A stretch of 64,000 bases of DNA. Origin: an uncultured Bifidobacteriaceae bacterium (GTDB lineage Bacteria > Verrucomicrobiota > Verrucomicrobiia > Limisphaerales > UBA11358). The stretch is from contig CAYVGC010000002.1 in assembly GCA_964449815.1 (NCBI GenBank), forward strand, positions 7 to 64,006, written 5' to 3'. The notes beneath the pieces were generated by a model. The model ran no database searches and was not told the origin of the DNA. It saw nothing but the letters and a program-made list of their open reading frames with translations. This document shows, one piece after another, positions 10,963 through 30,147 of this stretch. Position 1 is the stretch's first letter. Each line of letters begins with the position of its first letter. The position numbers and the translations under genes are program-made.

Positions 10963-11088
10963 TTGCGATTTACAATTTGCGGTTTGAGATTTGCGATTTC
11001 AACACAATTTCGGTTGCGGGTTGCAGGCTGAAAGTTGCAAGTTGAGCGCGGTCTTCACAGGCAAGACCTGCAACCTTTAACTTTTGAC

Positions 11089-11688: not shown

Positions 11689-11737
11689 AATTATCCGTGT
11701 TCTCCGCGTCCGGTTGTGGTTTAATTCCTCCGCAAAT

Positions 11738-12109
11738 ATGGATTCAAAAAAACTGGCGCGGCTTTGCCGCGATCTGGCGGACAATAAAAAGGCGGAAAAC
11801 CTCGCCGTGCTCGACGTGCGCAAGCTGTCGTCGGTGACGGATTATTTTGTCATCGCCACCGGCACCAGCCAGCCGCACCTGCGCGCCATCGTGGAGGAAA
11901 TCACCGGCAAGCTGCGCGATGAACATGATTTGCGCCCGTCGCGCACGGACGGCCTGGCGTCCGGCTCCTGGGTGGTGCTGGATTATTTCGACGTGATCGT
12001 CCACGTCATGCACACGGAGACGCGCAAACACTACGACCTTGAAGGCCTGTGGGGCGATGCGAGACAGCTCAAGCCGGCGAAGCCACGAAAGAAAAAATCA
12101 GCGGCGTGA
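11738..12109 (+). CDS. rsfS: ribosome silencing factor RsfS
   Basis: DYFVIATGTSQPHLRAI...WVVLDYFDVIVHVM is the iojap/RsfS pattern. ATG 11738 is chosen. Confidence 0.9.
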   Translation: MDSKKLARLCRDLADNKKAENLAVLDVRKLSSVTDYFVIATGTSQPHLRAIVEEITGKLRDEHDLRPSRTDGLASGSWVVLDYFDVIVHVMHTETRKHYDLEGLWGDARQLKPAKPRKKKSAA

Positions 12110-12184
12110 TCTCCGGGCTTGAATTTGCAAATTGACCATTTTTATTGCGGTTGCTAGGCTTTACTTCCGTTCGGAACGGTTTTT

Positions 12185-12658
12185 ATGCGACACACCATTT
12201 CAGTTTTAGTCGAGAACAAGTTCGGCGTGCTTACGCGCGTGGCCGGGCTGTTCAGCGGGCGCGGCTACAACATTGACTCGCTCAACGTCGCGCCGACGCA
12301 CGACGCCACCAGCTCGCGCATGACCATTGTGACGCACGGCGACGAGGCCACGGTGGAGCAGATTCTCAAACAGCTCAACAAGCTGCCGGACGTGCTGAAG
12401 GTCCAGGATTTCACCGAGGGAGAATATGTGGACCGCGAACTGGTGCTGGTGAAGGTCGGCGTGGATTCCAAGTCGCGCGCCGAGGTGATGCAGATCGCGG
12501 ACATTTTTCGCGCCAAAATCGTGGATGTGCAGCCCAGGTCGCTCACCATCGAGATCACCGGCACCGACAGCAAGGTGGAAAAATTCCTCGACCTGATGAA
12601 GACGTTCGGCGTCCAGGAAATCACCCGCACCGGCAAGGCCGCCATGCCGCGCAAATAA
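12185..12658 (+). CDS. ilvN: acetolactate synthase small (regulatory) subunit
   Basis: [33 protein letters not shown] is the ACT-domain start typical of IlvN/IlvH, and the gene sits directly upstream of ilvC. Confidence 0.9.
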
Positions 12659-12681
12659 TTTTTAACCGGCAAAATAAATTT

Positions 12682-13704
12682 ATGTCAAAAGTCTATACCG
12701 ACAAGGACGCCGACCTCGGCGTGCTGAAAAACAAAACACTGGCGGTTCTCGGCTTCGGCTCGCAGGGCCACGCCCACGCGCTCAACCTCAAGGACAGCGG
12801 CTGCAAGGTCATCATCGGCCTTTACGAAGGCAGCAAGTCCATCCCCGTCGCCAAGGAAAAAGGTTTCAAGGTCGTCACCACCGCCGAAGCCGTGAAGCAG
12901 GCCGACGTGATTTTCGTCTCGCTGCCGGACACCAAGCAGCCGGCGGTTTATGAAAAGGACATCGCGCCGAACTTGACGCCCGGCAAGACGCTGCTCTTCG
13001 CGCACGGCTTCGCGATCCATTTCAAAACGATTGTTCCGCCGAAAAACGTGAACGTCGTCATGGTCGCGCCGAAAGGCCCCGGCCACACCGTCCGCAGCCA
13101 ATACGTGGAAGGCAAGGGCGTGCCGTGCCTCATCGCCGTCTATCAAAACCCCGGCAAGGACGCGAAAAAAATCGCGCTCGCCTGGGCCAAGGGCATCGGC
13201 GGCACCCGCGCCGGCGTCCTCGAAACGAATTTCAAGGAGGAGACCGAAACCGATTTGTTCGGCGAACAGACCGTGCTTTGCGGCGGCGCGAGCGCGCTGG
13301 TGCAGGCCGGGTTTGAAACGCTGGTCGAAGCCGGTTACGCGCCCGAAATGGCCTACTTTGAATGTCTGCATGAACTCAAGCTCATCGCCGACCTGATGAA
13401 CGAGGCGGGCATCAGCGGCATGAGGTTCTCGATTTCCGAGACCGCCAAATGGGGCGACGTCAGCGTCGGCCCGAAGATCATTGACGCCGGCGTGAAGCAA
13501 CGCATGAAGGCCGCGCTCAAGGACATCCAGTCCGGCAAGTTCGCGAAGGAATGGGTCGCCGAATACAAGGGCGGCTACAAACGCTACAACGCGCTGCTTA
13601 AAAAAGGCGAACAGCACCCGATTGAAAAAACCGGCGCCAAACTCCGCGCGATGATGCCGTGGATGAAGAAGCATTCCATCAAGGGCGCGCAGGCCGCTTA
13701 TTGA
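12682..13704 (+). CDS. ilvC: ketol-acid reductoisomerase
   Basis: [18 protein letters not shown] Rossmann motif. The 340-aa length and overall sequence are those of class I KARI. Confidence 0.95.
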
Positions 13705-13743
13705 TTTCAGATTGGCAATTTTTGATTGCCGATTGAAAGACAA

Positions 13744-13769
13744 AAGCCGCCGGAGCAATCCGGCGGCTT
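13744..13769. terminator. bidirectional terminator hairpin between convergent ilvC and argJ
   Basis: Perfect 11-bp stem aagccgccgga / tccggcggctt with loop gcaa. It is flanked by an A-run on the left and T-rich sequence on the right. Confidence 0.65.
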
Positions 13770-13787
13770 GCTTGCTTTCGCGAACAA

Positions 13788-15125
13788 TCAACCTCCCTGC
13801 TTCGTCGGATCGCCCACGTCACCCTTGTTGAAGTCCACATATGCCTCGGTCAGATCGGCGGCATACATCACTGCATCCGCTTTGCCGAGGTTCAGGTGGA
13901 TGTGCAGTTCAAATTCCTGCGGTGCGACGGCGGCGCACAATTGTTTGAACGTCGCCGGCGTCGGCTGGCCGCGCTTGAGACTCCAGAGAATTTTCTTGCC
14001 GCCCGGCGCGCTGTAACCGATGTCAATTTTCTCCTCCGCCACCTTCGCGGCGGAATAACCGATCGCATCAATGATCCGGCCCCAGTTCGGATCGCCGCCG
14101 TGCCAGCTCGTCTTTACCAGCGGACTGTTCGCCACCGCGCGCGCGGCGGCATCAGCGTCTTGAATCGTCTTCGCGCCGTTCACGCGCACGGTCACGATGC
14201 GGTGAACGCCCTCGCCATCACGGACAATTTTCTTCGCGAGTTCTAGGCAGACGTGGTTGAGCGCAGCTTGGAAAACTTTGAATTCCGGGCTGTTGGTGCC
14301 GAACCTTTTGTTTTTCGCCAGCCCGTTCGCCAGCACCAAAACCGTGTCGTTCGTGCTCATGTCGCCGTCCACGGTGATGCGGTTGAAGCTGTTCGCCACG
14401 GCCTCATTCAAAGCCGTCTGCAAAACTTTTGCGTCCACGGCGGCATCCGTCGTGATGAAGCCCAGCATCGTCGCGTGAAGTCCGCCGTGCGGCAGCATGG
14501 CCGGACGCGCGCCCGTCGGCGACATTCCCGGCTGAATCATGCCCGCGCCCTTGCACATGCCGCCAATGCGGACGGTTTTGCCGCCAAGCTTGAATTCCAC
14601 CGCGATCTGCTTCGGTTTCGTATCACTGGTCATGATTGCCTCGACCGCGTGGTCGGCATGTTCAATGGTTGAACCGAGCAACGTCGCAGCTTCAATGATG
14701 CCTGCGCGGACATTGTCCATCGGCATCGTCACGCCGATGCGCCCGGTCGAGCCGACCAGCACCGAGCCTGCTGGCAAATTCAGCGCACGCTCGGCGAAGG
14801 AAACCATTTCGCGCGCGTCGGCCAGGCCTCGTCTGCCGGTGCAGGCATTGGCGTTGCCGGAATTGACGACGACGGCCTGCGCCGTTCCTTTTTTCATGCG
14901 CTCCACGCAAATTTTCACCGGCGCGGCGCAGACCTGGTTCGTCGTGAACATGCCGGCGACGGTCGCGGGCGTTTCGGAAACGATGAGCGCGAGGTCGCGC
15001 TTCTGGCCTTTGTTGGAGCCTTTGCCGGTGCCGAGTTTTTTGATGTCGCAGAACCCGCCGCCGGCCAGGAAGCCCTGCGGCGCAACGACGGAACCGGAAA
15101 CTTCTTTGAATGTTTTTTTACTCAT
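13788..15125 (-). CDS. argJ: bifunctional glutamate N-acetyltransferase / amino-acid acetyltransferase
   Basis: 445 aa with an ArgJ autoprocessing-site context (GLHATMLGFITTDA) and overall ArgJ-like sequence. Confidence 0.93.
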   Translation of the reverse strand: MSKKTFKEVSGSVVAPQGFLAGGGFCDIKKLGTGKGSNKGQKRDLALIVSETPATVAGMFTTNQVCAAPVKICVERMKKGTAQAVVVNSGNANACTGRRGLADAREMVSFAERALNLPAGSVLVGSTGRIGVTMPMDNVRAGIIEAATLLGSTIEHADHAVEAIMTSDTKPKQIAVEFKLGGKTVRIGGMCKGAGMIQPGMSPTGARPAMLPHGGLHATMLGFITTDAAVDAKVLQTALNEAVANSFNRITVDGDMSTNDTVLVLANGLAKNKRFGTNSPEFKVFQAALNHVCLELAKKIVRDGEGVHRIVTVRVNGAKTIQDADAAARAVANSPLVKTSWHGGDPNWGRIIDAIGYSAAKVAEEKIDIGYSAPGGKKILWSLKRGQPTPATFKQLCAAVAPQEFELHIHLNLGKADAVMYAADLTEAYVDFNKGDVGDPTKQGG

Positions 15126-15161
15126 GACTGAAGGTGAATTTGCGCAAGCCGCGGCTGGTTT

Positions 15162-15977
15162 TCAAATCTTAACCGCGTCAATTTCCAGCCGCACCATGCG
15201 GACGTGGACGTTCCCGGCCGCATCCGGCGGATGTTTTGCGAGGTAGCGCTGCGTGACGGCGGCGATGAATTCCTCGCGGACATTTTCCGGCACACGCTGG
15301 GTGAACGGCAGCCACGTCGCGCGCAGCCACGTCGCAAAACCTTTCGCGCCGGCGTAAGCCGCGTCTTTGGGCGCAAGTTTGACCGCGTTGATTTTGAAGC
15401 CAAAACGCGGCAGCCATTTTTCATAGTTGCCTGGCGCGTGGAAGAAATACGGCATCGGCATCCGGCGGAAAAACTCGCGCCAGCGCTGCCGCCGCATTTC
15501 CGGCCGCAGCGCGAGAAACACGTCGTGCGCGTTGCCTTTGCCGCCGCAGGAAACGACCAGCCGGCCGCCCGGTTTCAAAACCGCAGCCGCGCCACGCAAA
15601 ATCGCCTCGTGATCGTCCACCCAATGCCAGGCGGCATTGGAAAAAACAAAATCGAACCGGCGCGCGAATTTGATTTCACGCGCGTCCATGATTTGAAATG
15701 CGAGGTTCGGGAATTTTTCCGGCGGAAAGGTCTTTTGCGCGAACTCGATCATCTGCGACGAAGCGTCCACCCCGGTGGCCAGGCCGCGCGGCAGACTGCG
15801 CGCGATTTCCGCCGTCACCTTGCCGTCGCCGCAGCCGACGTCCAAAACGTGTTCGTCACCGCGCAGGTTGAGTTTGGCGATGAGCTCGCGCGCCCAGGTC
15901 TGCTGCACGACGGAATTGGCGGCGTAATCCGCCGCGTTCCATTTCGCCGGTTGGAGATTTTTTGGCGGCACGCTCAC
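15162..15977 (-). CDS. class I SAM-dependent methyltransferase (trans-aconitate methyltransferase-like)
   Basis: VLDVGCGDGKVT SAM-binding motif I. The GTG start overlaps the argC stop. The gene lies between argC and argJ. Confidence 0.75.
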   Translation of the reverse strand: MSVPPKNLQPAKWNAADYAANSVVQQTWARELIAKLNLRGDEHVLDVGCGDGKVTAEIARSLPRGLATGVDASSQMIEFAQKTFPPEKFPNLAFQIMDAREIKFARRFDFVFSNAAWHWVDDHEAILRGAAAVLKPGGRLVVSCGGKGNAHDVFLALRPEMRRQRWREFFRRMPMPYFFHAPGNYEKWLPRFGFKINAVKLAPKDAAYAGAKGFATWLRATWLPFTQRVPENVREEFIAAVTQRYLAKHPPDAAGNVHVRMVRLEIDAVKI

Positions 15978-17035
15978 ACCAGGCCCGCCGTTTCCGGCCA
16001 GCCGCAGATGAGGTTCATGCTTTGCACGGCCTGGCCGCTGGCGCCTTTGACAATGTTGTCCTCGGCGCTCATGACGATTAGCCGGCCGGTGCGCGGGTCA
16101 AGCCGCCAGGCGATTTCGCAGACGTTGGTGCCGACGACATTTTTCGTGTCGGGCAAAGCTTTTCCTTCCAGCAAACGAACGAACGGCTCGTTCGCATAAG
16201 CCGATTGGTAACACGCGGAAATTTTCTCCGCGAGCTTGGCCGCACCGGCAGCGTCGTTGAAATGTTCCGCTGGTGTGAGATAAAGCGTCGTCAAAATACC
16301 GCGATTCACCGGAATCAAATGCGGCGTAAATTGAATCGTCACTTTGGTTCCAGCGGCAAAAGAAAGTTGTTCCTCAATCTCGGACAAATGCCGGTGTTTC
16401 GGCACGCCGTAAGGGCGCACGCTTTCGTTGCATTCGCAAAATAGATAATCCACCTCGGCCTTCCGGCCCGCGCCGCTGACGCCGCTCAAGGAATCGGCGA
16501 TGATGCCGGCGGACTTGATGAGTCCGGCTTTGAGCAGCGGAATCACCGGCAGCAAAATGCTCGTCGGATAACAGCCGGGCGAGGCGATGAGCAAAGATTT
16601 TTTGATCTCGTCGCGGTAAATTTCCGGCAGGCCATAGACGGATTTTTTCAACAAGTCCGGAGCCGGGTGATCATGCGCGTAAAAGTCTTTGTAAATTTCC
16701 GCGCTTTTGAGCCGGAAGTCAGCGCTCAAATCAATGACCACGCAGCCAGCATTGAGCAGCGGCACCGCAAATTCGGCGGCGACGCCGTGCGGCAGCGCGA
16801 GGAAAACGACATCGGCCTGCTTCGCGAGCAATTCGGCATTGGGCTCGACGAAGCGGAGCGTCCTGGATTTCGGATGGCTGGCGAATTTTGGGAAAACCTG
16901 CGCGAGCGTCTGGCCCGCGTTCTGGCGCGAGGTGACGGCGACGAGTTCCGCGTGCGGATGGCTGAGGAGCAACTGCACGAGAACTTCGCCGGAATAACCG
17001 GACGCGCCGACGATGGCGACTTTTTTCGTTTTCAT
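15974..17035 (-). CDS. argC: N-acetyl-gamma-glutamyl-phosphate reductase
   Basis: MKTKKVAIVGASGYSGEVLVQLL and the active-site region ASPGCYPTS. ATG 17035 is chosen, because the first 82 codons of the track ORF run through repeat DNA. Confidence 0.93.
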   Translation of the reverse strand: MKTKKVAIVGASGYSGEVLVQLLLSHPHAELVAVTSRQNAGQTLAQVFPKFASHPKSRTLRFVEPNAELLAKQADVVFLALPHGVAAEFAVPLLNAGCVVIDLSADFRLKSAEIYKDFYAHDHPAPDLLKKSVYGLPEIYRDEIKKSLLIASPGCYPTSILLPVIPLLKAGLIKSAGIIADSLSGVSGAGRKAEVDYLFCECNESVRPYGVPKHRHLSEIEEQLSFAAGTKVTIQFTPHLIPVNRGILTTLYLTPAEHFNDAAGAAKLAEKISACYQSAYANEPFVRLLEGKALPDTKNVVGTNVCEIAWRLDPRTGRLIVMSAEDNIVKGASGQAVQSMNLICGWPETAGLV

Positions 17036-19919: not shown

Positions 19920-21947
19920 ATGAAACGCCTTGCTTCAGTCCTGTTCGCAGCCTTGCTGGCCTCGACCACGTCCGCTTTCAGTGCCGAGTCAACGAATTCG
20001 GTGCTGACTTACGTTGACCTGGTTCAGCGCCTCACCGATCTTGAACATCTGGCCACGCTGCCGGTGCCGGGCGAAAAGACCGCGCAGTTTTCGAGCTATG
20101 ACCGCGCGAGCCGTTACGACGAACAAACTGGCAAATACGTCCACTGGGATGCGAACGGCGACAACGACGGCATCATCCGCAAGGAAGACGGCAAATCCGT
20201 GCTTGCGGAAATGGACGGCCCTGGCTGCCTCTGGCGCATCTGGTCCGCCGCACCGAAGCAGGGCCACGTCCGCATTTATCTCGACGGCGACACCAATCCT
20301 GCGGTGGATTTGCCGTTCGCGGACTATTTTTCCGGCAAAGAAGCTCCGTTCACGCGGCCCGCGATCGTCAACATCGTTTCCCAGGGCTGCAACAATTACA
20401 CGCCGATTCCGTTTCAAAAATCCTGCAAAATCGTCGCCGACGCGGATTGGGGCGCGTATTACCATTTCGGCTACACGACGTTTCCCAAAGGCACGCAGGT
20501 GCCGACCTTCAAGCGGGAATTGTCGCCGGCGGACAACGCCGGGCTCGACGAGGCGGATAAAATTTTAAGCCATTGCGGTCCGCGCGAATTTCCCAACGGC
20601 CAGCGCGCCAGCGTCGAGGGAATGCTCGCCGGTCACGGCAGTTCGGGAACCGAGCCGGACGGCGCGGGTGCGATCACTGGCATCCGCGTTCGCTTCGATC
20701 CGCCGCTCACGCCGGCTGACCGCGATCTGCTCCGCGAAATCTCGCTTCAGATTCAGTGGGATGGCGAAGGTTCGCCGTCGGTGTGGTCGCCGCTCGGCGA
20801 TTTTTTCGGCACCGCGCCGGGCGCGAACGTGTATCGCTCGCTGCCGTGCGGCTACACGGAGGACGGCTGGTTTTACGCGAACTGGTTCATGCCGTTCACC
20901 AACGGCGCGAAAATTCACTTCGTCAACGAAGGTTCGAACAACCACAAACTCAAATACGAAATCTACCGCCAGGAAATCAAAGGCGATCTTACGCGCTACG
21001 CCCGCTTCCACGCCAAGTGGCATCGCGACGAGTTTTTGCCGACGGAACCGGAGCGGCAGATTGACTGGCCGCTGCTCAAGACCACCGGCGCGGGACGTTT
21101 CGTCGGCGTGATGCTGCACGTTTGGAACCCGCGCGGCGGCTGGTGGGGCGAGGGCGACGAAAAATTTTTCGTGGACGGCGAAAAATTTCCCTCCACCTTC
21201 GGCACCGGTTCCGAGGATTATTTCGGCTATGCCTGGGGCAGTCCGGCGCTGTTTCAAAATGCCTTCCATAACCAGACCCACAACGACGGCGACAGCAAGG
21301 GCCACATCTCGGTCAACCGCTGGCACATCTCCGACCAGGTTCCGTTTGAAAAACAATTCGAGGGCGACATCGAAAAATATTTCCCGAATGAACGCCCGAC
21401 GCGCTACGCCGCGACGGTTTTCTGGTATCTCGCCCCCGACGGCGATGATCCGTATTCGCCCGTGCCAGTCGCGGAACGCACCAATTATTTCGCGGCACCG
21501 GCCGCCAGAAAAATTCCCGGTGTCATCGAAGGCGAGCAGTTGAAAATCCTTTCCCAGACCGGCGGCCATCCGCAGGAGCAGGACATGACCGGCTGGGGCG
21601 AGCAATGGAGCAATGACGCCCAGCTCTGGTGGACCGAGGCCAAGCCCGGCGACAAGCTGGAACTCGCGCTCCCGGTGGCCAAAGCCGGCAAATACCAGTT
21701 GCTCGCACAGCTTACCAAGGCCGTGGATTACGGCATCGTGCAGCTCTCGCTCGACGGCGAAAAACTGGGCGAGCCAATTGATCTTTTCCACGATGGCGTC
21801 ATCGCCACCGGCGAACTTGATCTGGGCGCACATGAACTTTCGGCGGGCGATCACACACTCGCGGTCGCAATCACCGGCGCAAATCCCGCTGCGGTGAAGA
21901 GTTTCATGTTCGGGCTGGATTACGTAAAGCTGGTGGAGGCGAAATAG
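19920..21947 (+). CDS. DUF2961 / glycoside hydrolase family 172-like protein with signal peptide and C-terminal beta-sandwich extension
   Basis: Signal peptide MKRLASVLFAALLASTTSAFSA, then GPGCLWRIWSAAP...IYLDG and the overall DUF2961 pattern. ATG 19920 is chosen. Confidence 0.75.
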   Translation: MKRLASVLFAALLASTTSAFSAESTNSVLTYVDLVQRLTDLEHLATLPVPGEKTAQFSSYDRASRYDEQTGKYVHWDANGDNDGIIRKEDGKSVLAEMDGPGCLWRIWSAAPKQGHVRIYLDGDTNPAVDLPFADYFSGKEAPFTRPAIVNIVSQGCNNYTPIPFQKSCKIVADADWGAYYHFGYTTFPKGTQVPTFKRELSPADNAGLDEADKILSHCGPREFPNGQRASVEGMLAGHGSSGTEPDGAGAITGIRVRFDPPLTPADRDLLREISLQIQWDGEGSPSVWSPLGDFFGTAPGANVYRSLPCGYTEDGWFYANWFMPFTNGAKIHFVNEGSNNHKLKYEIYRQEIKGDLTRYARFHAKWHRDEFLPTEPERQIDWPLLKTTGAGRFVGVMLHVWNPRGGWWGEGDEKFFVDGEKFPSTFGTGSEDYFGYAWGSPALFQNAFHNQTHNDGDSKGHISVNRWHISDQVPFEKQFEGDIEKYFPNERPTRYAATVFWYLAPDGDDPYSPVPVAERTNYFAAPAARKIPGVIEGEQLKILSQTGGHPQEQDMTGWGEQWSNDAQLWWTEAKPGDKLELALPVAKAGKYQLLAQLTKAVDYGIVQLSLDGEKLGEPIDLFHDGVIATGELDLGAHELSAGDHTLAVAITGANPAAVKSFMFGLDYVKLVEAK

Positions 21948-22288
21948 GCCGGGCTGGTGCCGTCATGGCCGCGCCGGTTGGAGCCTCTCTACGGCGCGCC
22001 GGAACCATCCCACCCCGCGTCCGAGCCGTTCGTTCCCCCGTCCGAGCGACTTGGACGTGCGTCTGGATGGCCTGGGCGCGCGTCCGGGTCGCTTGGACCT
22101 GCGTCCGAAGAGCGTCGTCTGGTCAAAAAAACGAGGAAAACCAGGAAAATTGACCCCAAACGCGGTTTCCAAGCCCAAAACAGCCCCGTGCCAGACGACC
22201 GTGGTCAAAAAACGACAGTTGGTGGTGGGACGACTCCCGCCGGCCGCCGAATCTGGCACCACCAAGACACCAAGACCAGGTTTTCGCG

Positions 22289-22333
22289 TCAAATTTCTTC
22301 CTTCATGTCTTGGTGCCTTTGTGGTTAAACTTT
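22289..22333 (+). repeat. 45-nt leader/intergenic element, copy B
   Basis: Ends 5 nt before the thrS N-fragment ATG. Matches copy A at 44 of 45 positions in my hand alignment. Confidence 0.9.
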
Positions 22334-22338
22334 CCCCC

Positions 22339-23340
22339 ATGTCCGCTGAACAAGAGAATCAACCGCCGCCCGCGCCGCTCAACCCGGAACGTAAAACTTT
22401 GGACGACCGCGCCAAGATGACCGAGCTGGAACGCATCCGGCATTCCGCCGCGCACGTCATGGCCACCGCCATCCTGAGGCTGTGGCCCGACGCGCAATTC
22501 GCCGCCGGGCCGCCGGTCGAAAATGGATTTTATTACGACGTGGACCTGAAGCACCGCATCTCGCCGGAGGATTTCCCCGCCATCGAGGCCGAGATGAAAA
22601 AGGAAATCAAGGCCAACCACACCTTCGAGAAAATCACCGTCACGCGCGAGCAGGCGCTCAAGGACGCGCAAAACGGCCGGCTGGCCGCGCTTGCCGAGCG
22701 GCCCGGCAGCCCCAGCAAGTTCAAGATTGGCAACCTCGAAGCCATTCCCGACGGCGAGCCGATCACCTATTTCAAGAGTGGTGATTTCGTGGACCTCTGC
22801 GCCGGGCCGCATGTGATGCGCACCGGCAACATCGGCGCGTTCAAGCTCACGAGCGTGGCCAGCGCATATTACAAGGGCGACGAGCGCAACCCGCAGCTCC
22901 AGCGCATCTACGGCACGGCGTTCAAGAACAAGACCCCGCTCGACGAGTATTTCAAGATGATCGAGGAGGCCAGGCGCCGCGACCATCGCAAGATTGGCGC
23001 GGAGATGGGGCTGTTCGCGATTGACACCGAATACGTCGGGCCGGGCCTGCCGCTCTGGCTGCCCAAAGGCACCGCCATCGTCGAGGAACTGGAAAAGCTG
23101 GCGAAGGAAACGGAATTCGCCGCCGGCTACGTGCGCGTGAAAACGCCGCACATCGCGCGGGAGAAAATGTATTTAACCTCCGGTCACTTGCCGGTGCTTT
23201 ACGCGGAGTCAATGTATCCGCCGATGAAAATGGATGAACATCGCGAGGAACGGGAAAAATTGGAAAGGCGCATCGCCGAACTGGAAAGGCAACTGCTGGA
23301 ATATGCAAAGAAAATTTCCGAACGCAAGTCCGGCGGCTGA
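22339..23340 (+). CDS. thrS: threonyl-tRNA synthetase, N-terminal fragment (editing-domain remnant plus first part of class II core)
   Basis: HSAAHVMATAIL (editing-domain HxxxH), RRDHRKIG, and VKTPHIAREKMYLTSGHLPVLYAESMYPPM aligning with E. coli [26 protein letters not shown]. It then has a 38-aa charged helical tail and a stop. ATG 22339 is chosen. Confidence 0.85.
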   Translation: MSAEQENQPPPAPLNPERKTLDDRAKMTELERIRHSAAHVMATAILRLWPDAQFAAGPPVENGFYYDVDLKHRISPEDFPAIEAEMKKEIKANHTFEKITVTREQALKDAQNGRLAALAERPGSPSKFKIGNLEAIPDGEPITYFKSGDFVDLCAGPHVMRTGNIGAFKLTSVASAYYKGDERNPQLQRIYGTAFKNKTPLDEYFKMIEEARRRDHRKIGAEMGLFAIDTEYVGPGLPLWLPKGTAIVEELEKLAKETEFAAGYVRVKTPHIAREKMYLTSGHLPVLYAESMYPPMKMDEHREEREKLERRIAELERQLLEYAKKISERKSGG

Positions 23341-23380
23341 TTTTTGGAATGGCTGATTCCCCAAAACCCGCTATATTGTT

Positions 23381-23794
23381 ATGAAAGTGAATCCAGACAT
23401 TCGATGGAAACAGCGGTTTGAGAATTACGAAAAAGCCTTGCTGCTGCTTCGTGAAGCGATGGCCGACATCGAAAATCTTTCCGACCTGGAAAAAGAAGGA
23501 GCCGTCCAACGATTTGAGTTCACGGTCGAACTGGCGTGGAAAACATTGAAAGATTATCTGGAAAACAGCGGAGTCGCGCTGGCTCAAATCACTCCCAAGA
23601 ACGTCGTGAAACAGGCGTTCAGCGCCAAAATCATCCGCGACGGCCAGTTGTGGATTGACATGCTCGACTGCCGCAATCTCATGTCGCACAACTACGACGA
23701 AAAAATTCTCAATCAGACCGTTCACAAAATGTCCGGGTTTTTGCCCGCGCTGAACGAGCTGCATGATTTTCTGAAAAAGCGGGGCGCGTTATGA
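23381..23794 (+). CDS. HEPN-domain toxin (HI0074-type nucleotidyltransferase substrate-binding protein)
   Basis: GAVQRFEFTVELAWKTLKDYL and the Rx4H motif RNLMSH. It overlaps the partner gene by ATGA. Confidence 0.85.
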   Translation: MKVNPDIRWKQRFENYEKALLLLREAMADIENLSDLEKEGAVQRFEFTVELAWKTLKDYLENSGVALAQITPKNVVKQAFSAKIIRDGQLWIDMLDCRNLMSHNYDEKILNQTVHKMSGFLPALNELHDFLKKRGAL

Positions 23795-24123
23795 ATTCCT
23801 TTGGACTGACTGATTCCGAACAGGAAATGATCCGCGCGGTTTTGCGTCGGCACGCTGAAGTGATGGAGACAAAAATTTTCGGCTCGCGCGCCAAAGGTAA
23901 TTTCCAGCCCAGTTCCGACATTGACCTCGCGCTTTGGGGAAACCTGTCCGTTTCGGCAATTGCCATGATTGCCGGCGAACTGGACGAATTACCGCTGCCC
24001 TACACGTTTGACGTGCAAGCCTACGATGCCATTCACCACCAGCCATTACGCGAACACATTGACCGGGTCGGGAAAATTTTCTACTCGCAAGTCGGCAGCG
24101 AACCGGTAATTGCCAAACGGTAA
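23791..24123 (+). CDS. MNT-type nucleotidyltransferase antitoxin
   Basis: GSRAKGNFQPSSDIDLAL is the minimal nucleotidyltransferase GS..D.D motif. Confidence 0.85.
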   Translation: MNSFGLTDSEQEMIRAVLRRHAEVMETKIFGSRAKGNFQPSSDIDLALWGNLSVSAIAMIAGELDELPLPYTFDVQAYDAIHHQPLREHIDRVGKIFYSQVGSEPVIAKR

Positions 24124-24390
24124 TTGCCGGATTCAAACTGCCGGTCGCCAGATTCAAATTGACGATTGCCGGATTGAATCTGCCGGTTGGGAAATGGCTT
24201 TCGTCGGTCAACTTATTGCTTCTGTCAGTTGCCGGATGACAATGTGCTGTCGAATTATGACCATGTGCGGTTGCCGGATGGCATCTGCCGGTCGCCAGAT
24301 GGCTTCGTGCTGTTGACTTTTGACCATGTGCGGTCGGTTTATGGCCGCTGTCGGTTGACTTTTCGCCATTGCCGGTCAAAGGACGCCTTT
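24105..24390. repeat. degenerate 21-bp tandem array, about 13 units
   Basis: Units in register from 24139: tgccggtcgccagattcaaat, tgacgattgccggattgaatc, tgccggttgggaaatggcttt, cgtcggtcaacttattgcttc, tgtcagttgccggatgacaat, gtgctgtcgaattatgaccat, gtgcggttgccggatggcatc, tgccggtcgccagatggcttc, gtgctgttgacttttgaccat, gtgcggtcggtttatggccgc, tgtcggttgacttttcgccat, tgccggtcaaaggacgccttt. Confidence 0.85.
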
Positions 24391-24513
24391 TTTCCAAGGG
24401 TTTATGCCGATGCGATTCCAAAAAAGCCCGAAATTATCAATGCCAGCCCTGCCGCCGCCCCTAAAATATGAAGTTGCGGCGTGCGGAAATGAATCCGCGC
24501 TCCGCAACTCAAA

Positions 24514-24897
24514 ATGAACACGAAACAACAAAACAAGCTGGCCATGTATCTGGCCGTCAAAGCTGTGCTCGATTCCAATAACTCCGTATGGCAATCGTTG
24601 CAGGCTTTTGCGGATGGATACACGGACTTCAGCGGTCATGTCACCCAAATCCAGACCTTGGGGCTTTCCCAAGTGACGGATTCCACCGGCATCGCGCAGG
24701 ACAAAAAAGCGTCCAAGGCGGCGATGGCAACGGCAGCGCAGCAAATCAGTGCGGCGGTTCACGCCTACGCTGTCAAAAACAAGAACAACACGCTGGCCAA
24801 CGAAACCGATTTTACCGTTTCCGATTTGACCGGCGAACGCGACGCGGATGCCATCAAGGATTGCAGGTATTGCGCGCAATTGTATGAAAGGTCGTAG
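24514..24897 (+). CDS. hypothetical protein, probably 3'-truncated
   Basis: 127-aa ORF. After about residue 117 (near 24864) it runs into the antisense of the SNF2 fragment, so the last ~10 codons look like read-through. Confidence 0.4.
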   Translation: MNTKQQNKLAMYLAVKAVLDSNNSVWQSLQAFADGYTDFSGHVTQIQTLGLSQVTDSTGIAQDKKASKAAMATAAQQISAAVHAYAVKNKNNTLANETDFTVSDLTGERDADAIKDCRYCAQLYERS

Positions 24898-25664
24898 TAA
24901 ATGGCGTGATGGCAGGTTTTGTGAAGCGAAATGGATTCGGCGCACGCACCGGGATTGGCAATCAACACGTCCAAGCCGCTTGCCGTGTCCTTGAATCGGT
25001 TAATCAACCGCTCCCGCGTCTCGCCCTGCTGAACCGATGTTTGCTCGACAGGGGTTTCGCCATAAAGCAATTCGCAATTCACCTTCAATTTTTGGAAATG
25101 TTTTTGGATGAGCTTCAGCGCGCCGATGAAATTGCACCACACCACCACTTTTTCGTTGCGGCCAAGAATTCGCGAAACGAGTCTTTCCAACTGCAAAACC
25201 TTTGCGGGCGTTTCTAGTTGATCGTAAGTGCGGATGATTTCATAAAGCTCGCTCGCCTTGGCAACATCTATGTCGCAATCATCGAGCGGCTTGGTTAACA
25301 GGCCAACATAGGCGCTACATTGGCGCAAACGCAGGATTCGCGCGCGACGCAGCCGCGTCAGCACTTCGGCGTTTTTTGAATAATCAAACTTCGCGTTATT
25401 TCGAATCCGCAGCGTGATCGCGTCATAAACAAACTGCTCATGCTCGTTCATCGGCGTGATGATTGGCGGATGGAAAACAGGCTGCGTCAAACCGAGGTCT
25501 GCTTTCGTCACGCGATAAAACATCGGGCCGACAGTGTGTTTGAGGATTTGCTGTGCGCTTCCAATGTCGCCTTTTTGTTCGGCCACTTGAATTCTGATTC
25601 GATTTTCTGCGCCGATGGGATCACTTGCGGGCCAAAGGAACTCAAAAAGGTTATTTTGGATCAA
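24858..25664 (-). pseudogene. SNF2-family helicase fragment, missing the N-terminal ATPase lobe and the extreme C-terminus
   Basis: LFEFLWP..., the helicase C-lobe KVVVWCNFIGALKLIQKHF...ELLYGETPVEQ...RFKD...VLIANPGACAESISLHKTCHHAIYYDLSYNCAQYLQS. Homology stops before the expected DRxHRxGQ motif. No Walker A/DExH region is present. Confidence 0.7.
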
Positions 25665-26518
25665 AAAAGCGTCTGGCGGTCCAGCTTTGCAAAAAGCTTC
25701 CGCCTCATTCTGCTTGGGTTGAGGCGTTTTGCGGCTCTGCCGCGCTGACGTTTGCCAAAAAACCAGCGCCCGTTGAAGTCATCAACGATCTCGACTGCGA
25801 AATCATAAATTTTTTCGAGCAACTCCGGGACAATGAAAAGCGGCTTTGTCGCGCAATCGCACTGACGCCCTACGCGCGGAAGGAATTAGACCTCGCCAGA
25901 AAACCGCAGCGGAAAGCGACCAAACTCGAACGCGCTCGGCGCTTTCTGGTTTCGTCCATGATGGCAATCAATGGAGTTTTCGGCAAAGAGCGCGGCGGCT
26001 TTTCCTATTCCGATTCGTATGTGCGCAGCGGGCGGGAAGCGCGCGTAAATCGGTGGTATAATCTTCCAAAACGAATTTCCAAATTCGTTGAGCGCTTGCG
26101 GGGTGTCCGCGTTGAAAACAAAGATGCCCGCAAGCTGCTCAAGCAATTTGCAGATAAGCCGGCGGCGCTCATTTATTTGGACCCACCGTATTTTGCGGAC
26201 AGAACAAACGGCTACAACCACGATGCAAACGACCTGAAATTCCACCGCGAGCTTTTGCGGCTGGCCAACCGCGCCCGCTGCATGATTTTCATCAGCGGAT
26301 ACCAAAATACGCTTTACCGGAAAATGCTGACCACAAAAAAAGGCTGGCACACCAAAACAATCAAGGCTACGACACGAGATTCATCCGGCAAGACCCATGA
26401 GCGAACGGAAGTTGTTTGGATGAACAAACATTTTTTGAAGGCGCAAAAGTCAGGAAAAATTCCCGTTCGACTCTCCAAAAGGGAAACAAAATTAAACAAG
26501 GTCAATCCGACTCGCTGA
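25625..26518 (+). CDS. Dam-like (D12 class) N6-adenine DNA methyltransferase
   Basis: YFGSKKRLA...WVEAFCGSAAL (SAM motif) and the catalytic DPPY (IYLDPPYF). There is no in-frame ATG. The only candidate starts are TTG 25625 and CTG 25607, after a stop at 25595. Confidence 0.75.
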   Translation: MRAKGTQKGYFGSKKRLAVQLCKKLPPHSAWVEAFCGSAALTFAKKPAPVEVINDLDCEIINFFEQLRDNEKRLCRAIALTPYARKELDLARKPQRKATKLERARRFLVSSMMAINGVFGKERGGFSYSDSYVRSGREARVNRWYNLPKRISKFVERLRGVRVENKDARKLLKQFADKPAALIYLDPPYFADRTNGYNHDANDLKFHRELLRLANRARCMIFISGYQNTLYRKMLTTKKGWHTKTIKATTRDSSGKTHERTEVVWMNKHFLKAQKSGKIPVRLSKRETKLNKVNPTR

Positions 26519-26538
26519 CTTTCTGCTCCTCACCCCGG

Positions 26539-26575
26539 CCCTCTCCTCGTTCGGCGAGGAGAGGGAGAATTATTT
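26539..26575 (+). terminator. hairpin (perfect 11-bp stem) plus T-rich tail downstream of the methylase gene
   Basis: ccctctcctcg-ttcgg-cgaggagaggg followed by agaattatttt. It could equally be a REP-like palindromic repeat. Confidence 0.45.
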
Positions 26576-26771
26576 TGTGGGACGATTTCCCAGGGTATTC
26601 GCTGCGCTCAAACCCTGGGCTGATTTCCGCAGAGCCTTCAGCGCAGTCGAAGCTCGGCCTGCCATTCAATTCGCGCGGATTCGTGGAATTCGTGTCGCGT
26701 CTTTGCGCCTCCGCGTCTTTGCGTTGAAAAATTGAATTTCTTTTGCGCGGCAGAACGGTATTTTGATTGCG

Positions 26772-26888
26772 ATGTCTGACCTCACGAAAGCCGGGCAGTT
26801 CAATCTGGTTGAAGACGCCGTCATTCAACGCAAAGGCGCGGAGTCGCGAAGGGCAGGCGCGGGCAAATATCCTTTGGTTTCAAACTGA
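26772..26888 (+). pseudogene. 38-codon ORF duplicating the first ~17 codons of the thrS C-fragment
   Basis: MSDLTKAGQFNLVEDAV... compared with MHELTKTEQFTLVEDAV... at 27690. I count 41 identities in the first 50 nt by hand. Similarity is lost afterwards and a stop follows at 26886. Confidence 0.6.
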
Positions 26889-26907
26889 AAAGAAGTATTT
26901 TAACGGC

Positions 26908-27165
26908 ATGAAAGCGATGCAAATAGAATATCCTGAATCTTGGACGGCTTCGGCAGGTTCAAGTCCCGAACGCTTTGAAAACGAGGCGCGCATGGCGCTG
27001 GCGATGAAGCTGTTTGAGATGGGGCGGCTGACCAGCGGCCAGGCGGCGCAACTGGCCGGAGTTTCCCGCATGGCTTTTCTTTTCAACTGTCCGCAATGGA
27101 ACGTGCCCGCCGTGAATTGGGACGCCGCCGAGCTTGCCGCCGAGTTCAAGCCGATCCCCTCGTGA
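26908..27165 (+). CDS. UPF0175-family antitoxin
   Basis: ALAMKLFEMGRLTSGQAAQLAGVSRMAFL is the UPF0175 pattern. Its stop overlaps the GTG start of the PIN partner. Confidence 0.8.
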   Translation: MKAMQIEYPESWTASAGSSPERFENEARMALAMKLFEMGRLTSGQAAQLAGVSRMAFLFNCPQWNVPAVNWDAAELAAEFKPIPS

Positions 27166-27650
27166 GCCGGATTATCTGCAATTCAGGGCCGTTGATTGCG
27201 CTCGGCATCCTTGCCCGGCTGGACATCCTGAAATCCCTGTTTGACGAGGTGCTCGTTCCCGAAGCCGTTCAGAAGGAAATCGAGCAGGGCGGAATAAAAT
27301 TATCGGGCCTGGAGGATTTCCGGCGCGCAAATTGGATTCGGATTGTGGCGCTCAAGGAAAAGCGCGACGAACTGCTGGAGTCGCTGCTGGACATCGGCGA
27401 AGCGGCGGTCATCAGCCTTGCGCGCGAGCAAAAGGCGTTGCTGGTGCTGATTGACGAACGCAAGGCGCGCAAAGTCGCACGCGATATTTACGGCCTGCAA
27501 CCCATCGGCACGGCGCGCATTCTGGTCGAGGCCAAACGGAAGAATTTACTGCCGGGCATCGCCTCTCAATTTCAAAAACTCCGGCAGGAAGGTTATTGGA
27601 TTCACGATACAATTGTCGAAACCGCCTTGCGTGAAGCCGGAGAGATTTGA
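27162..27650 (+). CDS. DUF3368-type PIN-like nuclease toxin
   Basis: ICNSGPLIALGILARLDILKSLFDEVLVPEAVQKEI is typical of DUF3368/PIN partners of UPF0175. GTG 27162 is chosen. Confidence 0.8.
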   Translation: MSRIICNSGPLIALGILARLDILKSLFDEVLVPEAVQKEIEQGGIKLSGLEDFRRANWIRIVALKEKRDELLESLLDIGEAAVISLAREQKALLVLIDERKARKVARDIYGLQPIGTARILVEAKRKNLLPGIASQFQKLRQEGYWIHDTIVETALREAGEI

Positions 27651-27689
27651 ATTTTCTTCGTGGTTCACAGGCGTTAAGATTTTTCCTCA

Positions 27690-28799
27690 ATGCACGAACT
27701 CACGAAAACCGAACAGTTCACTTTGGTTGAAGACGCCGTTAAAACCGGCATTGCGCCGGCGGAAATTGCCGCCGCGTTCAACGAGTTGACCGCGCTGCGC
27801 CAGGAATTGAAAAAACTTGGCGAGCCGGAAAGTTATTACCTCAAAGCGATGAACTGCCCGCATCATCACCGCATTTTTGCGGCGGAACCGCGCAGTTACC
27901 GCGATCTGCCGTTGCGGCTGGCCGAATACGGCACCTGCTACCGCTACGAGCAGTCGGGCGAATTGTTCGGCCTCATGCGCGTCCGCTCGCTCAACATGAA
28001 CGACGCGCACATCTATTGCACGCCGGAGCAGTTCGCCGCCGAGTTCAACGCCGTCAACGAAATGTATCTGAAGTATTTCAAGATTTTCGGCATCGAGAAA
28101 TACGTCATGCGCTTCAGCACGCACGACCCGTCGCGCCTGACCGGCGACAACGCCAAGTTCGTCAACGAGCCGGAATTGTGGAAGCAGACGGAAGACCTGG
28201 TCCGCAAGGTCTTGATTGATTCGAAGATTCCCTACGTGGAGGTGCCGAACGAGGCGGCGTTTTACGGGCCGAAGATTGACGTGCAGGTCTGGAGCGTCAT
28301 CGGCCGCGAATTCACGCTGGCGACCAACCAGGTGGACTTCGCCGTGCCGCGCCGGTTCGGCCTGGTCTATCGCGACAAGGACAACACGGACAAGACGCCG
28401 CTGTGCATCCATCGCGCGCCGCTCGGCACGCACGAGCGGTTCATCGGCTTCCTCATCGAGCATTACGCCGGCAACTTCCCGCTCTGGCTCGCGCCGGAGC
28501 AGGTGCGCGTGATGACCATCGGCGAGGAGGAGCCGCTGGTGAATTACGCCAAGGCCATCGTGAATGAATTGCGCGCGAATTTCGTCCGCTGCGAATCGGA
28601 TTTTTCGTCGAACAAAATCAACGGGAAAATTCAGGAAGCGGAGCAGGCGAAAGTCCACACGATGCTCGTCATCGGCGGCCGCGACATGGACGCCGGGAAT
28701 GTTTCCGTCCGCCTGCACGGCAAGGGCAACATCGGCGCGAAGCCGAAGGGCGAAGTGGTTGCGGAGATTCTGGCGAAGATCAAAGAGCGGCGCATCTGA
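27690..28799 (+). CDS. thrS: threonyl-tRNA synthetase, C-terminal fragment (zinc site, motifs 2 and 3, anticodon-binding domain)
   Basis: A 46-aa helical head is followed by ESYYLKAMNCPHHHRIF...RSYRDLPLRLAEYGTCYRYEQSGEL...RVRSLNMNDAHIYC...FYGPKIDV...IHRAPLGTHERFIGFLIEHYAGNFPLWLAP. This is colinear with E. coli ThrRS from YCIKPMNCPGH onward. Confidence 0.85.
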   Translation: MHELTKTEQFTLVEDAVKTGIAPAEIAAAFNELTALRQELKKLGEPESYYLKAMNCPHHHRIFAAEPRSYRDLPLRLAEYGTCYRYEQSGELFGLMRVRSLNMNDAHIYCTPEQFAAEFNAVNEMYLKYFKIFGIEKYVMRFSTHDPSRLTGDNAKFVNEPELWKQTEDLVRKVLIDSKIPYVEVPNEAAFYGPKIDVQVWSVIGREFTLATNQVDFAVPRRFGLVYRDKDNTDKTPLCIHRAPLGTHERFIGFLIEHYAGNFPLWLAPEQVRVMTIGEEEPLVNYAKAIVNELRANFVRCESDFSSNKINGKIQEAEQAKVHTMLVIGGRDMDAGNVSVRLHGKGNIGAKPKGEVVAEILAKIKERRI

Positions 28800-28851
28800 A
28801 CGGCGCTGTTTTCCGGCGCTGCTGCGGATGAAGAGTTGAAATAAATTGCGG

Positions 28852-30147
28852 ATGTCCATGCGTGTGAAGCTTGCCTTTCAATTTTTCGCCGGGCTGCTGC
28901 TCGCAACCTCGTCGCCGGCGCAGGATTTTTTGAGCGGCGCGGACCTTTCGCTGTTGCAGTTCTTCGAGGACCGCGGCATCAGCTACCAGTCCAACGGCGT
29001 GACGCAGGACGCCATCGTCCTGCTGAAAAATCGTGGCATCAACTGCGTGCGGCTGCGGCTGTTCACCAGCAGCGCGGCGCAGGCGCAGGCTGATCCCTAC
29101 GATTACACCAACAACCTTGCCTACACGCTGCCGCTGGCGGCGCGCGTGAAAAGCGCGGGGTTGAAGCTGCTGCTGGATTATCATTTCTCGGACACCTGGG
29201 CGGACCCGGCGCATCAGGCGAAACCGGCGGCGTGGGCGAATCTGTCCTCCGCACAGTTGCCGGCACAGCTTCGCAGTTATTGCAGCAACACCATCGCCGC
29301 GCTCGTCGCGGCGGGCGCGGCGCCGGATTACGTCCAAATCGGCAACGAGATTACCAGCGGCCTGCTGTGGACGGACGGAGAAGTGGGCGGCGCGTATGAA
29401 AATACCAATCAATGGTCGCAGCTCGGCCAGTTGATGAAAGCCGCGATTCAAGGCGTGAAGGACGCAGCGGGCACGACGCCGCCAAAATTCATCGTCCACC
29501 TGGATCGTGGCGGCGACTGGGTGACGACGCAGTGGTTTTTCGATTCGCTCAACGCGCAGTCCGTTCCTTTCGACATTATCGGGCAGAGCTATTATCCGTT
29601 CTGGCAAGGCAGCCTGGATGATTTGCGGAACTGCCTGACGAACACGGTGCAGCGCTACAACAAACCCGTCATCGTGGCGGAAACCGGTTTTCCGTTTGCC
29701 AATTCCACAAACCTGGCTGGCTTTCCCGCGACGACCAATGGACAGGTGAATTTCGTCGGCGCGCTGGCGCAGATTGTGAAAGGACTGCCGGGCCAGAAGG
29801 GCCTGGGAATTTTTTGGTGGGGCGCGGAATACCAGACTTTGAACGGCTACAACCTCGCTGGGTTCGACCAGCGTTCACTTTTCGGTCCGGGCGGCAACAT
29901 GCTGCCGGCGGCGGACGCGCTGGGACAATTGTCCGCGCCCGTGGTGATGAGGGCGCGGCGGACGAACAGCAGCCTGCAGTTGTGCTGGCCGTTGAGCGGC
30001 GCGGGCATGGCGCTGCAGACTGCCACGAATCTGGCATCCGCAAACTGGCAGTCCGACACCGGGCCGGTTCAAAACACGAACGCCGTTTTCAGCGTTCGCC
30101 TGCCGCTGGATGCCGGCGCGCAATTTTACCGGCTGAAATCAAATTGA
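28852..30147 (+). CDS. arabinogalactan endo-beta-1,4-galactanase (GH53) with C-terminal extra domain
   Basis: Signal peptide, then GADLSLLQFFEDRGISY...NCVRLRLF...LDYHFSDTWADP...VQIGNEITSGLLW, which is the GH53 pattern. Confidence 0.8.
   Translation: MSMRVKLAFQFFAGLLLATSSPAQDFLSGADLSLLQFFEDRGISYQSNGVTQDAIVLLKNRGINCVRLRLFTSSAAQAQADPYDYTNNLAYTLPLAARVKSAGLKLLLDYHFSDTWADPAHQAKPAAWANLSSAQLPAQLRSYCSNTIAALVAAGAAPDYVQIGNEITSGLLWTDGEVGGAYENTNQWSQLGQLMKAAIQGVKDAAGTTPPKFIVHLDRGGDWVTTQWFFDSLNAQSVPFDIIGQSYYPFWQGSLDDLRNCLTNTVQRYNKPVIVAETGFPFANSTNLAGFPATTNGQVNFVGALAQIVKGLPGQKGLGIFWWGAEYQTLNGYNLAGFDQRSLFGPGGNMLPAADALGQLSAPVVMRARRTNSSLQLCWPLSGAGMALQTATNLASANWQSDTGPVQNTNAVFSVRLPLDAGAQFYRLKSN

Follow-up and report, generated by a model that had tools for sequence, protein, structure and literature searches.

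Whether an essential aminoacyl-tRNA synthetase (aaRS) can be encoded by two genes, broken within the catalytic core and with a set of defence genes lodged in the break, is the question raised by a threonyl-tRNA synthetase (ThrRS; thrS) locus of an uncultured member of the Limisphaerales (Verrucomicrobiota). The locus lies in a 64,000-nucleotide stretch of contig CAYVGC010000002.1 (assembly GCA_964449815.1), hereafter the window. An original prediction, made from the DNA alone, described thrS as split by a 4.35-kb insert and left two options, a functional two-piece enzyme or a dead gene compensated by a paralog. Our analysis favours the former: the locus most likely encodes a naturally split, two-gene ThrRS that is functional and whose chains would assemble non-covalently. 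This reading is preferred because the split, with its shared anatomy, is conserved across assemblies and species, is under purifying selection, and has halves that persist where they have become inverted (locus L009) or unlinked (L004).

The open reading frame (ORF) list places an N-fragment of 333 amino acids (aa) on the forward strand (ATG at 22339, stop codon ending at 23340, frame open from 22051) and, 4349 bp further on and on the same strand, a C-fragment of 369 aa (27690-28799), in exact agreement with the fragment ends and junction peptides originally proposed. The N-fragment ends in ...SMYPPMKMDEHREEREKLERRIAELERQLLEYAKKISERKSGG and a stop codon, while the C-fragment starts with MHELTKTEQFTLVEDAV...GEPESYYLKAMNCPHHH. 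Pfam comparison assigns tRNA_SAD (6.8e-15) to the N-fragment, and tRNA-synt_2b (3.3e-41) and HGTP_anticodon (PF03129; 7.6e-13) to the C-fragment. The editing-domain HxxxH/CxxxH motifs (HSAAHVMA and CAGPH) are present and conserved in the alignment with homologs, class II motif 1 (VKTPHIA) is found in the N-fragment, and the zinc ligands and motifs 2 and 3 (MNCPHHH, YRYEQSG...RVRSLNMNDAH and HRAPLGTHERF) are found in the C-fragment. The catalytic and zinc motifs are the same as those of aligned contiguous relatives, to which the N-fragment is 85-92% identical, and the proteins most similar to the joined halves are contiguous ThrRS of Verrucomicrobiia metagenome-assembled genomes (MAGs; 79-86% identity, full coverage, most 620-714 aa). 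Of the 565 positions in the NCBIfam thrS model TIGR00418, the N-fragment covers 1-256 (220.8 bits) and the C-fragment 255-562 (338.1 bits), and the halves are thus exact complements of one ThrRS; neither half reaches the whole-protein cutoff of 383.65 bits, which the sum alone exceeds.

Alignment to solved ThrRS structures maps the break to residues ~324-327 of Staphylococcus aureus 1NYQ, between FPPMQLDE and TESMVLRPMNCPHH, and to ~322/323 of Escherichia coli 1QF6. This site is a short beta-hairpin turn, a few residues long, that lies between class II motif 1 and the zinc-binding strand: the editing domain and motif 1 are upstream of it, and the zinc-binding Cys strand is downstream, together with motifs 2 and 3 and the anticodon-binding domain. 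The Pfam, TIGR00418 and structural alignments hence agree with the predicted separation of the first part of the class II core from the zinc site, motifs 2 and 3 and the anticodon-binding domain, while the estimate that the flanking blocks lie only a few residues apart corresponds to this short turn.

The fragments meet the break with two helical peptides, a 37-aa tail on the N-fragment and a 48-aa head on the C-fragment. The tail consensus is MDEH R..R...RIAELE[KR]QL..[YH]AKK... followed by the stop codon, and that of the head is an ATG followed by ..VE.AVK.G.AP...AAFNEL.ALR.ELKKLGEPES-YYLKAMNCPHHH. The tail is conserved in 18 loci and the head in 25, with the stop codon and ATG at the same places; in non-contiguous genome loci the N ORF runs through 31-40 codons of shared tail before its stop, and the C ORF opens with the ATG and a conserved head of 47 residues. 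When joined, tail and head can be aligned over their entire length with the uninterrupted loop of the relative L097 (37% identity, E 3e-16), the sole gap being five residues exactly at the break, and more weakly with the loop of L062, while the loops of L030, L046, L060 and P0012 share end motifs with them. As such, tail and head are ancestral rather than derived from the insert, and the split follows helix 1 of a three-helix insertion that was already present in the ancestor, at the beta-hairpin tip.

Structural modelling points in the same direction. The full-length AlphaFold2 (AF2) model of the concatenated halves was built on 51 close homologs and is usable for the junction region alone, where it predicts helices at 302-331 (tail), 339-351 and 357-375 (head), with a per-residue confidence score (pLDDT) of 85-93 across the junction. 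Three helices are again obtained when the isolated module is folded from its single sequence (predicted template modelling score, pTM, 0.55), and hydrophobic residues, read from the sequence, recur with a spacing of 3-4 in all three. In the models the break is placed in the linker after helix 1 of the three-helix insertion, and helix 1 would pack on helices 2-3. The proposed comparison with relatives has thus identified a contiguous helical insertion at this position (L097 and L062) and a split that relatives share. The suggestion that the break lies in a lineage-specific helical insertion is borne out, while the further detail of a two-helix hairpin tip gives way to a three-helix module cut after helix 1 in the AF2 model.

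The distribution of the split was determined among 80 species-representative Limisphaerales loci from the distance between two anchor peptides flanking the loop, SMFPPM and YYLKAMNCPHHH. Contiguous thrS genes are present in 69 loci (65 with plain loops and four with in-frame insertions), while the remaining 11 are not contiguous, and the same break is found in 9-10 of the 80 species-level genomes. The anchors are 3.5-4.9 kb apart in L002, L013, L032, L053, L064 and L080. In L009 the C-fragment is inverted ~5.4 kb downstream of the N-fragment, the inversion having separated the halves into convergent genes; within this region (10000-16600) the C-fragment occupies the opposite strand (16555-15446) and adjoins a Y1-transposase fragment (15017-15319). 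The C-fragment is absent from the whole 16-kb locus of L004, including the 10 kb downstream of the N-fragment, where housekeeping genes are found (BrkB, ComM-type Mg-chelatase and GT2), and the locus ends inside the tail in L073 and probably also in L019.

A metagenome scan with the head peptide yielded ~18 further split-type loci, seven of which harbor both halves on one contig. Furthermore, at least 60 clusters of stand-alone C-fragments (362-384 aa; contigs of up to 787 kb) occur among the best 120 C-fragment protein matches, and each of the four protein look-up loci inspected (contigs of 85-787 kb) comprises an N-fragment, a 2.6-4.3 kb island and a C-fragment. Besides the window, both halves are located on one contig in 18 loci. 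The same stop, start, tail and head in many independent assemblies exclude both an assembly artefact and a private, recent pseudogene. The split represents an allele class that is conserved among dozens of relatives within the soil Verrucomicrobia. A protein search with a short head query (81 aa) returned short ORFs only, exposing a family of head-relic ORFs described below.

Purifying selection acts on the N- and C-fragments as well as on their junction peptides. Nei-Gojobori comparison among seven split loci, with synonymous divergence (dS) of 0.14 to ~1.2, gave ratios of non-synonymous to synonymous divergence (dN/dS) of 0.09-0.23 for the N core, 0.05-0.45 for tail plus head (72 codons) and 0.08-0.29 for the C core. 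The median dN/dS of the junction-proximal core is 0.095 in split-split pairs versus 0.061 in contiguous-contiguous pairs, constraint on the two allele types being of the same order. No frameshift or stop codon was found in the halves of the split loci examined, save one indel in L161, the closest relative of the window, whose N-fragment (5581-6537) carries a single frameshift near RPGNP/SKFKIGN and is otherwise intact. This indel is likely a sequencing error rather than decay, the contig naming suggesting long reads.

The loop in contiguous relatives is itself highly variable. In the L001-L080 set, the contiguous loops of 65 of the 80 loci are 13-127 residues long and belong to several unrelated, mutually unalignable families, mostly charged and helical; their flanks are 85-100% identical, and the aligned stretch from SMFPPM to YYLKAMNCPHHH is without common sequence or length. 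The in-frame insertions in the four loci mentioned above span 216-260 residues (L005 10867-11591, L007 10873-11573, L008 10849-11630 and L044 10840-11489). The inserted domain is a complete RayT/IS200-like Y1 transposase (PF01797; HUH motif HVHLL) flanked by REP-like peptides (GSAGVPPAVSGVAPETS), and looks like a REPtron translated as part of the essential enzyme. Transposase insertions were also observed in the proteins P0019, P0028, P0058, P0061 and P0087, with a single REP-like peptide only in P0057.

Several results weigh against a functional two-chain ThrRS. The full-length AF2 model is poor (mean pLDDT 58.7), and the AF2 output gave no contact information on the packing of helix 1. Foldseek comparison of the isolated module against the PDB returned no significant match (best E 2.1), and no named fold is claimed. 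A strict sigma-70 scan calls no promoter before the C-fragment, and the contig of L090 carries split relics beside a complete contiguous thrS, indicating that co-residence or replacement does happen. Lastly, the split loci are polyphyletic in a neighbour-joining tree of the ThrRS cores, being scattered among the contiguous ones, which requires recombination or repeated replacement. The divergence of tail and head tracks that of the core, arguing against a recent spread of the split, and recent horizontal spread of the split allele as the sole explanation was rejected on these grounds. Over the first 420 nt of the C core the window is closest to split alleles (97-98%, versus at most 95% for contiguous alleles), and this clustering dissolves farther from the junction, such that some recombination is likely. 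Head relics directly upstream of contiguous thrS genes in L066, L082, L090 and L003 are in line with replacement by contiguous alleles. On the simplest reading, an old split would have been followed by homologous exchange of the junction region via the conserved flanks and by occasional replacement with contiguous alleles.

The halves might alternatively be the remains of a dead or sub-functionalised gene, with an intact paralog elsewhere performing aminoacylation, or the N-fragment alone might be kept as a free-standing editing factor, as free-standing ThrRS editing proteins exist in Crenarchaeota. Replacement does occur, as is evident from the N-fragment and head relics beside the complete contiguous thrS of L090 and from the head relics before contiguous genes in L066, L082 and L003. 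No other thrS is present within the 64-kb window, the part of the genome searched, and none of the split-bearing MAGs contributes more than one of the top 80 loci; both observations are weak evidence against a second copy. We nevertheless consider a relic improbable: both halves, and not just the N-fragment, are intact, with dN/dS of ~0.1 at dS of up to ~1, the C-fragment, its ATG and its leader are conserved, and purifying selection acts on junction helices that would be purposeless in isolated fragments. In L090 the C-fragment has decayed to 65 codons beside the intact contiguous gene, the fate expected of a redundant half, and neither the window nor any other split locus examined exhibits such decay.

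Genes interrupted by multi-kb elements that are subsequently excised are known, and an excisable element of the skin/sigK or nifD type, an intron or a split-intein fractured gene could in principle restore a contiguous ThrRS in cis or in trans. In split-intein fractured genes, a selfish gene, reportedly for an endonuclease, is located between the halves (Dassa et al. 2009; PMC2677866). The split thrS resembles them as a housekeeping gene in two pieces with selfish DNA between; they are, however, rejoined by protein trans-splicing, while intein motifs, Hint domains and Cys/Ser...HN-Cys/Ser/Thr junction residues are absent from the split thrS. The window island also lacks a recombinase in Pfam, NCBIfam and PADLOC searches, and no direct repeat joins the tail end (23340) to the head start (27690). 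The sole Rfam match over 21500-29500 is a chance miRNA (E 0.27), ruling out known introns, T-boxes and leaders as well as other RNA families. The inverted C-fragment of L009, its absence from the 10 kb downstream in L004, and the conserved tail stop and head ATG further argue against healing, which is far less probable than a relic. Even less credible is an assembly or binning error in which foreign sequence wrongly interrupts a contiguous thrS. The exact window proteins have no match in the protein collection, and the GC content of the island (0.48-0.53) is below that of its flanks (~0.59-0.63), but the stop, start, tail and head are shared by assemblies produced independently in many projects, in some cases on contigs of 0.4-4.6 Mb, while the N-fragment-to-HEPN junction is reproduced in L086 and L162 and the leader-to-head junction in L002, L009 and L161. 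Healing and artefact are both essentially excluded.

Independent transcription of the C-fragment is required in L009 and L004, where it is inverted and unlinked, respectively. The layout of the N-fragment leader, GTTAAACT-(10 nt)-ATG, is similar to that of the C-fragment leader, and both starts share the pattern GTTAA[A/G].T..(9-10 nt)ATG and lack a Shine-Dalgarno sequence. A -10-like TAAGAT/TATTTT (TAAGAT in the window) is located ~9 nt before the C-fragment ATG, and homology is lost upstream of ~55 nt. The C-fragment leader had been described as a degenerate copy of the N-fragment leader; the common GTTAA pattern and the missing Shine-Dalgarno sequence support this only in part, as its conserved ~55 nt form an element of its own. 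Strict sigma-70 and terminator scans yielded no more than the shuffled expectation and flagged neither thrS start, and it is from conservation only that the C-fragment leader is proposed to act as a promoter and the N-fragment leader to be functional.

Repeats of CTTTG(C/T)G followed by TTAAA occur ~10-15 nt before the ATG of thrS in many loci, including the window (22258-22338) and the N-fragment leaders of L001, L006, L009, L013, L030 and L064. The CTTTG(C/T)G motif also forms the left arm (26701-26728) of a 28-nt inverted repeat before a pseudo-head in the window island, and precedes the C leader of L083. This element may represent a shared promoter or operator of both halves.

The features of the window locus and the cargo of related islands are listed in Table 1.

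Table 1. Features of the split thrS locus in the window and gene content of the islands of related split loci.
Feature	Position	Strand	Evidence or content
N-fragment leader	22258..22338	+	Inverted repeat 22258-22276 / 22307-22325, then GGTTAAACTTTCCCCC before the ATG; no Shine-Dalgarno sequence
thrS N-fragment	22339..23340	+	Editing domain (HxxxH, tRNA_SAD), class II motif 1, first hairpin strand
N-tail	23227..23340	+	KMDEHREEREKLERRIAELERQLLEYAKKISERKSGG plus stop; helix 1 of the predicted split three-helix module
HEPN-type toxin candidate (HI0074 / NTase_sub_bind)	23381..23794	+	Pfam and NCBIfam matches
MNT-type nucleotidyltransferase (Polbeta / MntA-like antitoxin)	23791..24123	+	Pfam, NCBIfam, PADLOC PDC-S09
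Degenerate 21-bp repeat array	~24121..24361	.	Families D1/D2; Tandem Repeats Finder period 21, core 24126-24187
Orphan ORF, 127 aa, shortened relative to 232-aa homolog	24514..24897	+	No family
SNF2-type helicase fragment, C-terminal half only	24765..25664	-	Helicase_C only; weak ZorD/DrmD-like matches
Dam-family (D12) N6-adenine DNA methyltransferase	25625..26518	+	Pfam, NCBIfam; PADLOC MTase_II 8e-46
Strong terminator-like hairpin, 3' of methylase gene	26539..26565	+	Hairpin scan
28-nt inverted repeat	26701-26728 / 26824-26851	.	Repeats D3, I1; encloses pseudo-copy of C-fragment leader and 17 head codons
UPF0175 antitoxin-like protein	26908..27165	+	Pfam; PADLOC PDC-S70
DUF3368 PIN-like protein	27096..27650	+	Pfam; PDC-S70 5e-40, alignment from residue ~24-26
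C-fragment leader	27635..27689	+	~55 nt, conserved (alignment of 8 split loci); no Shine-Dalgarno sequence
thrS C-fragment	27690..28799	+	Head 27690-27833 (helices 2-3), Zn-binding strand MNCPHHH, motifs 2 and 3, anticodon-binding domain
L002 island			OLD-family nuclease and IS481-like gene
L009 island			HepT, UvrD fragment, Y1 transposase fragment
L013 and L087 islands			Two N6_N4 methylases
L032 island			Mrr, Vsr, DUF3800
L053 and L085 islands			C5 methylases
L064 island			HicA, DUF7309
L084 island			BstXI restriction-modification
L162 island			Ser/Thr kinase-TPR protein; HEPN/MNT adjoins N-fragment as in the window

Every cargo element of the original inventory was found in the window island by Pfam, NCBIfam and PADLOC searches and by repeat and hairpin scans. 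The orphan ORF has no family in Pfam, NCBIfam or PADLOC and shares 90.6% identity with L091 1863-2212, above the level of thrS itself (83-84%), while its full-length 232-aa homolog is located at L084 678-1376. The 21-bp array followed by the orphan gene recurs in other thrS islands (window 24121-24897, L091 1505-2212 and L084 299-1376). Both the UPF0175 and DUF3368 proteins match the PADLOC candidate system PDC-S70, and the real start of the latter is probably near 27165. Adjoining this pair is the pseudo-copy of the C-fragment leader and 17 head codons (26729-26822, ATG at 26772, MSDLTKAGQFNLVEDAV), with two matches versus none expected. No recombinase or integrase was detected in the window island by Pfam, NCBIfam and PADLOC searches; an integrase-borne element is a possible origin of this island, and the IS481-like transposase match in L002 is weak.

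Comparison with relatives indicates turnover of this cargo between invariant ends. Such turnover can be fast: L161 shares 93.5% (N) and 96.9% (C) DNA identity with the window, yet its island is wholly different, with homology extending precisely to the stop codon of the N-fragment (23340) and beginning again at 27670, 20 nt ahead of the C-fragment ATG. The window and L086 are collinear over 1687 nt comprising the N-fragment, HEPN and MNT genes, at a DNA identity of 80% that equals that of thrS itself, and similar collinear blocks are shared by L013/L087, L064/L092 and L009/L091; collinearity at thrS-like divergence indicates that the arrangement is old. The flanks are conserved, the cargo varies from relative to relative and is rich in defence genes, and the gap is thus a defence-island hotspot with old and new layers.

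Duplicated pieces of the junction are also found in relatives. Pseudo-copies of the last ~66 N-fragment codons, including the tail, were observed in the islands of L090 (1-219, 974-1168 and 1750-1947) and L086 (8907-9014), those in L090 beginning at the same residue (267/268), which suggests repeated site-specific or homology-driven insertion at the N-fragment 3' end. L032 carries a further copy of the head. The C leader, head and first ~17 core codons occur as a relic 38-64 nt upstream of complete contiguous thrS genes (L066 23-211, L082 1140-1334, L090 3306-3500 and L003 8072-8134; ORFs P0143-P0167). This relic, cut at the same residue (~65) in three loci whose adjoining contiguous genes have different loops, constitutes a recurrent hypothetical ORF of 65-72 aa. 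Tandem pseudo-copies of the thrS 3' end (C-fragment residues ~246-368), of which the window has none, are present downstream of thrS in L105 (3158-9918), L097 (11888-16154), L129 (10663-17573), L137 (7642-8028), L147 (10622-14482), L156 (11713-12826) and L088 (13311-17545), which we take to be the classic footprint of integrative islands that target the 3' end of a gene and supply a substitute for it. In L107 (700-3336), partial copies of the N 3' end and of the C-fragment are inverted and oriented towards each other in a palindromic arrangement, probably a metagenome assembly artefact or a local inversion-duplication.

We suggest the following origin for the two-gene ThrRS. A Limisphaerales ancestor would have possessed a ThrRS with a lineage-specific three-helix insertion of ~80 residues at the beta-hairpin tip, and foreign DNA would have landed in the linker after helix 1. 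The founding insert may have been the HEPN/MNT pair, a pair that in three diverged lineages still directly adjoins the N-fragment. The upstream part, with the editing domain, motif 1 and helix 1, would then have gained a stop codon, and the downstream part, with helices 2-3, the zinc site, motifs 2 and 3 and the anticodon-binding domain, a promoter-like leader and an ATG. The chains are predicted to reassemble non-covalently, helix 1 packing on helices 2-3 and the hairpin strands pairing within the catalytic sheet, to give an active (N.C)2 enzyme. Bounded by extremely conserved coding sequence, the gap has become a hotspot in which toxin-antitoxin and restriction-modification systems, along with other defence genes, come and go and replace one another. 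On balance, though only narrowly, we lean towards the fuller proposal that at least 10% of Limisphaerales species have as their sole ThrRS an obligate two-gene enzyme, cut between motifs 1 and 2 and held together by a split three-helix module from the lineage-specific insertion, that a HEPN/MNT insertion founded the break, and that the gap is a long-lived hotspot exchanged between species via the ultra-conserved half-gene flanks.

Naturally split synthetases are rare, and the known cases have informed ideas on the modular assembly of these enzymes. The alpha/beta LeuRS of Aquifex aeolicus is a naturally split class I synthetase, known from essentially one lineage, whose activity needs non-covalent association of the chains. 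Like the ThrRS described here, for which association is predicted from sequence, it is an essential aaRS from two genes with the break in the catalytic domain at a lineage-specific insertion; unlike it, the ThrRS belongs to class II and is broken between motifs 1 and 2, with a conserved helical module at the break and a variable island, neither of which is known for the LeuRS. The AlaRS of Nanoarchaeum equitans is likewise a class II synthetase encoded as two ORFs, which are unlinked and must assemble, but it is split outside the catalytic core in a reduced archaeal genome and without known mobile or defence cargo, whereas the ThrRS split is polymorphic among free-living soil bacteria. In the crenarchaeal ThrRS-cat/ThrRS-ed pair, functions of the same enzyme family are also spread over two proteins, the editing domain and an intact catalytic protein being separate paralogs; in the split thrS the cut runs through the catalytic core, and the editing domain has remained joined to motif 1.

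The island resembles other defence islands and hotspots in its variable restriction-modification, toxin-antitoxin, OLD and candidate PDC cargo between invariant flanks. Unlike the usual hotspots between core genes, its flanks are the halves of a single essential gene, its left border being the N-fragment stop codon and its right border lying 20-55 nt before the C-fragment ATG. A literature search returned nothing relevant on split ThrRS in Verrucomicrobia or on split class II cores, and we know of no earlier natural class II synthetase split inside its catalytic core and of no earlier defence hotspot inside an essential gene. Split synthetases as such are a known kind; to our knowledge, the cut in a class II catalytic core, the clade-conserved split helical module and the defence island in an essential gene are new.

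Annotation pipelines will score the halves as partial genes or pseudogenes and misjudge the completeness of MAGs. If the proposed assembly holds, a two-chain class II core cut between motifs 1 and 2 would provide a natural test of fragment complementation in the class II fold, as well as a ready-made helical heterodimerisation module. One clade harbors three states, namely contiguous loops of 13-127 aa, loops with an in-frame transposase domain and fully split genes, and their coexistence allows gene fission to be traced stepwise, possibly along with re-fusion or replacement. The locus furthermore shows that a defence and toxin-antitoxin island can reside within an essential gene, which bears on the origin of hotspots and on the movement of islands between species.

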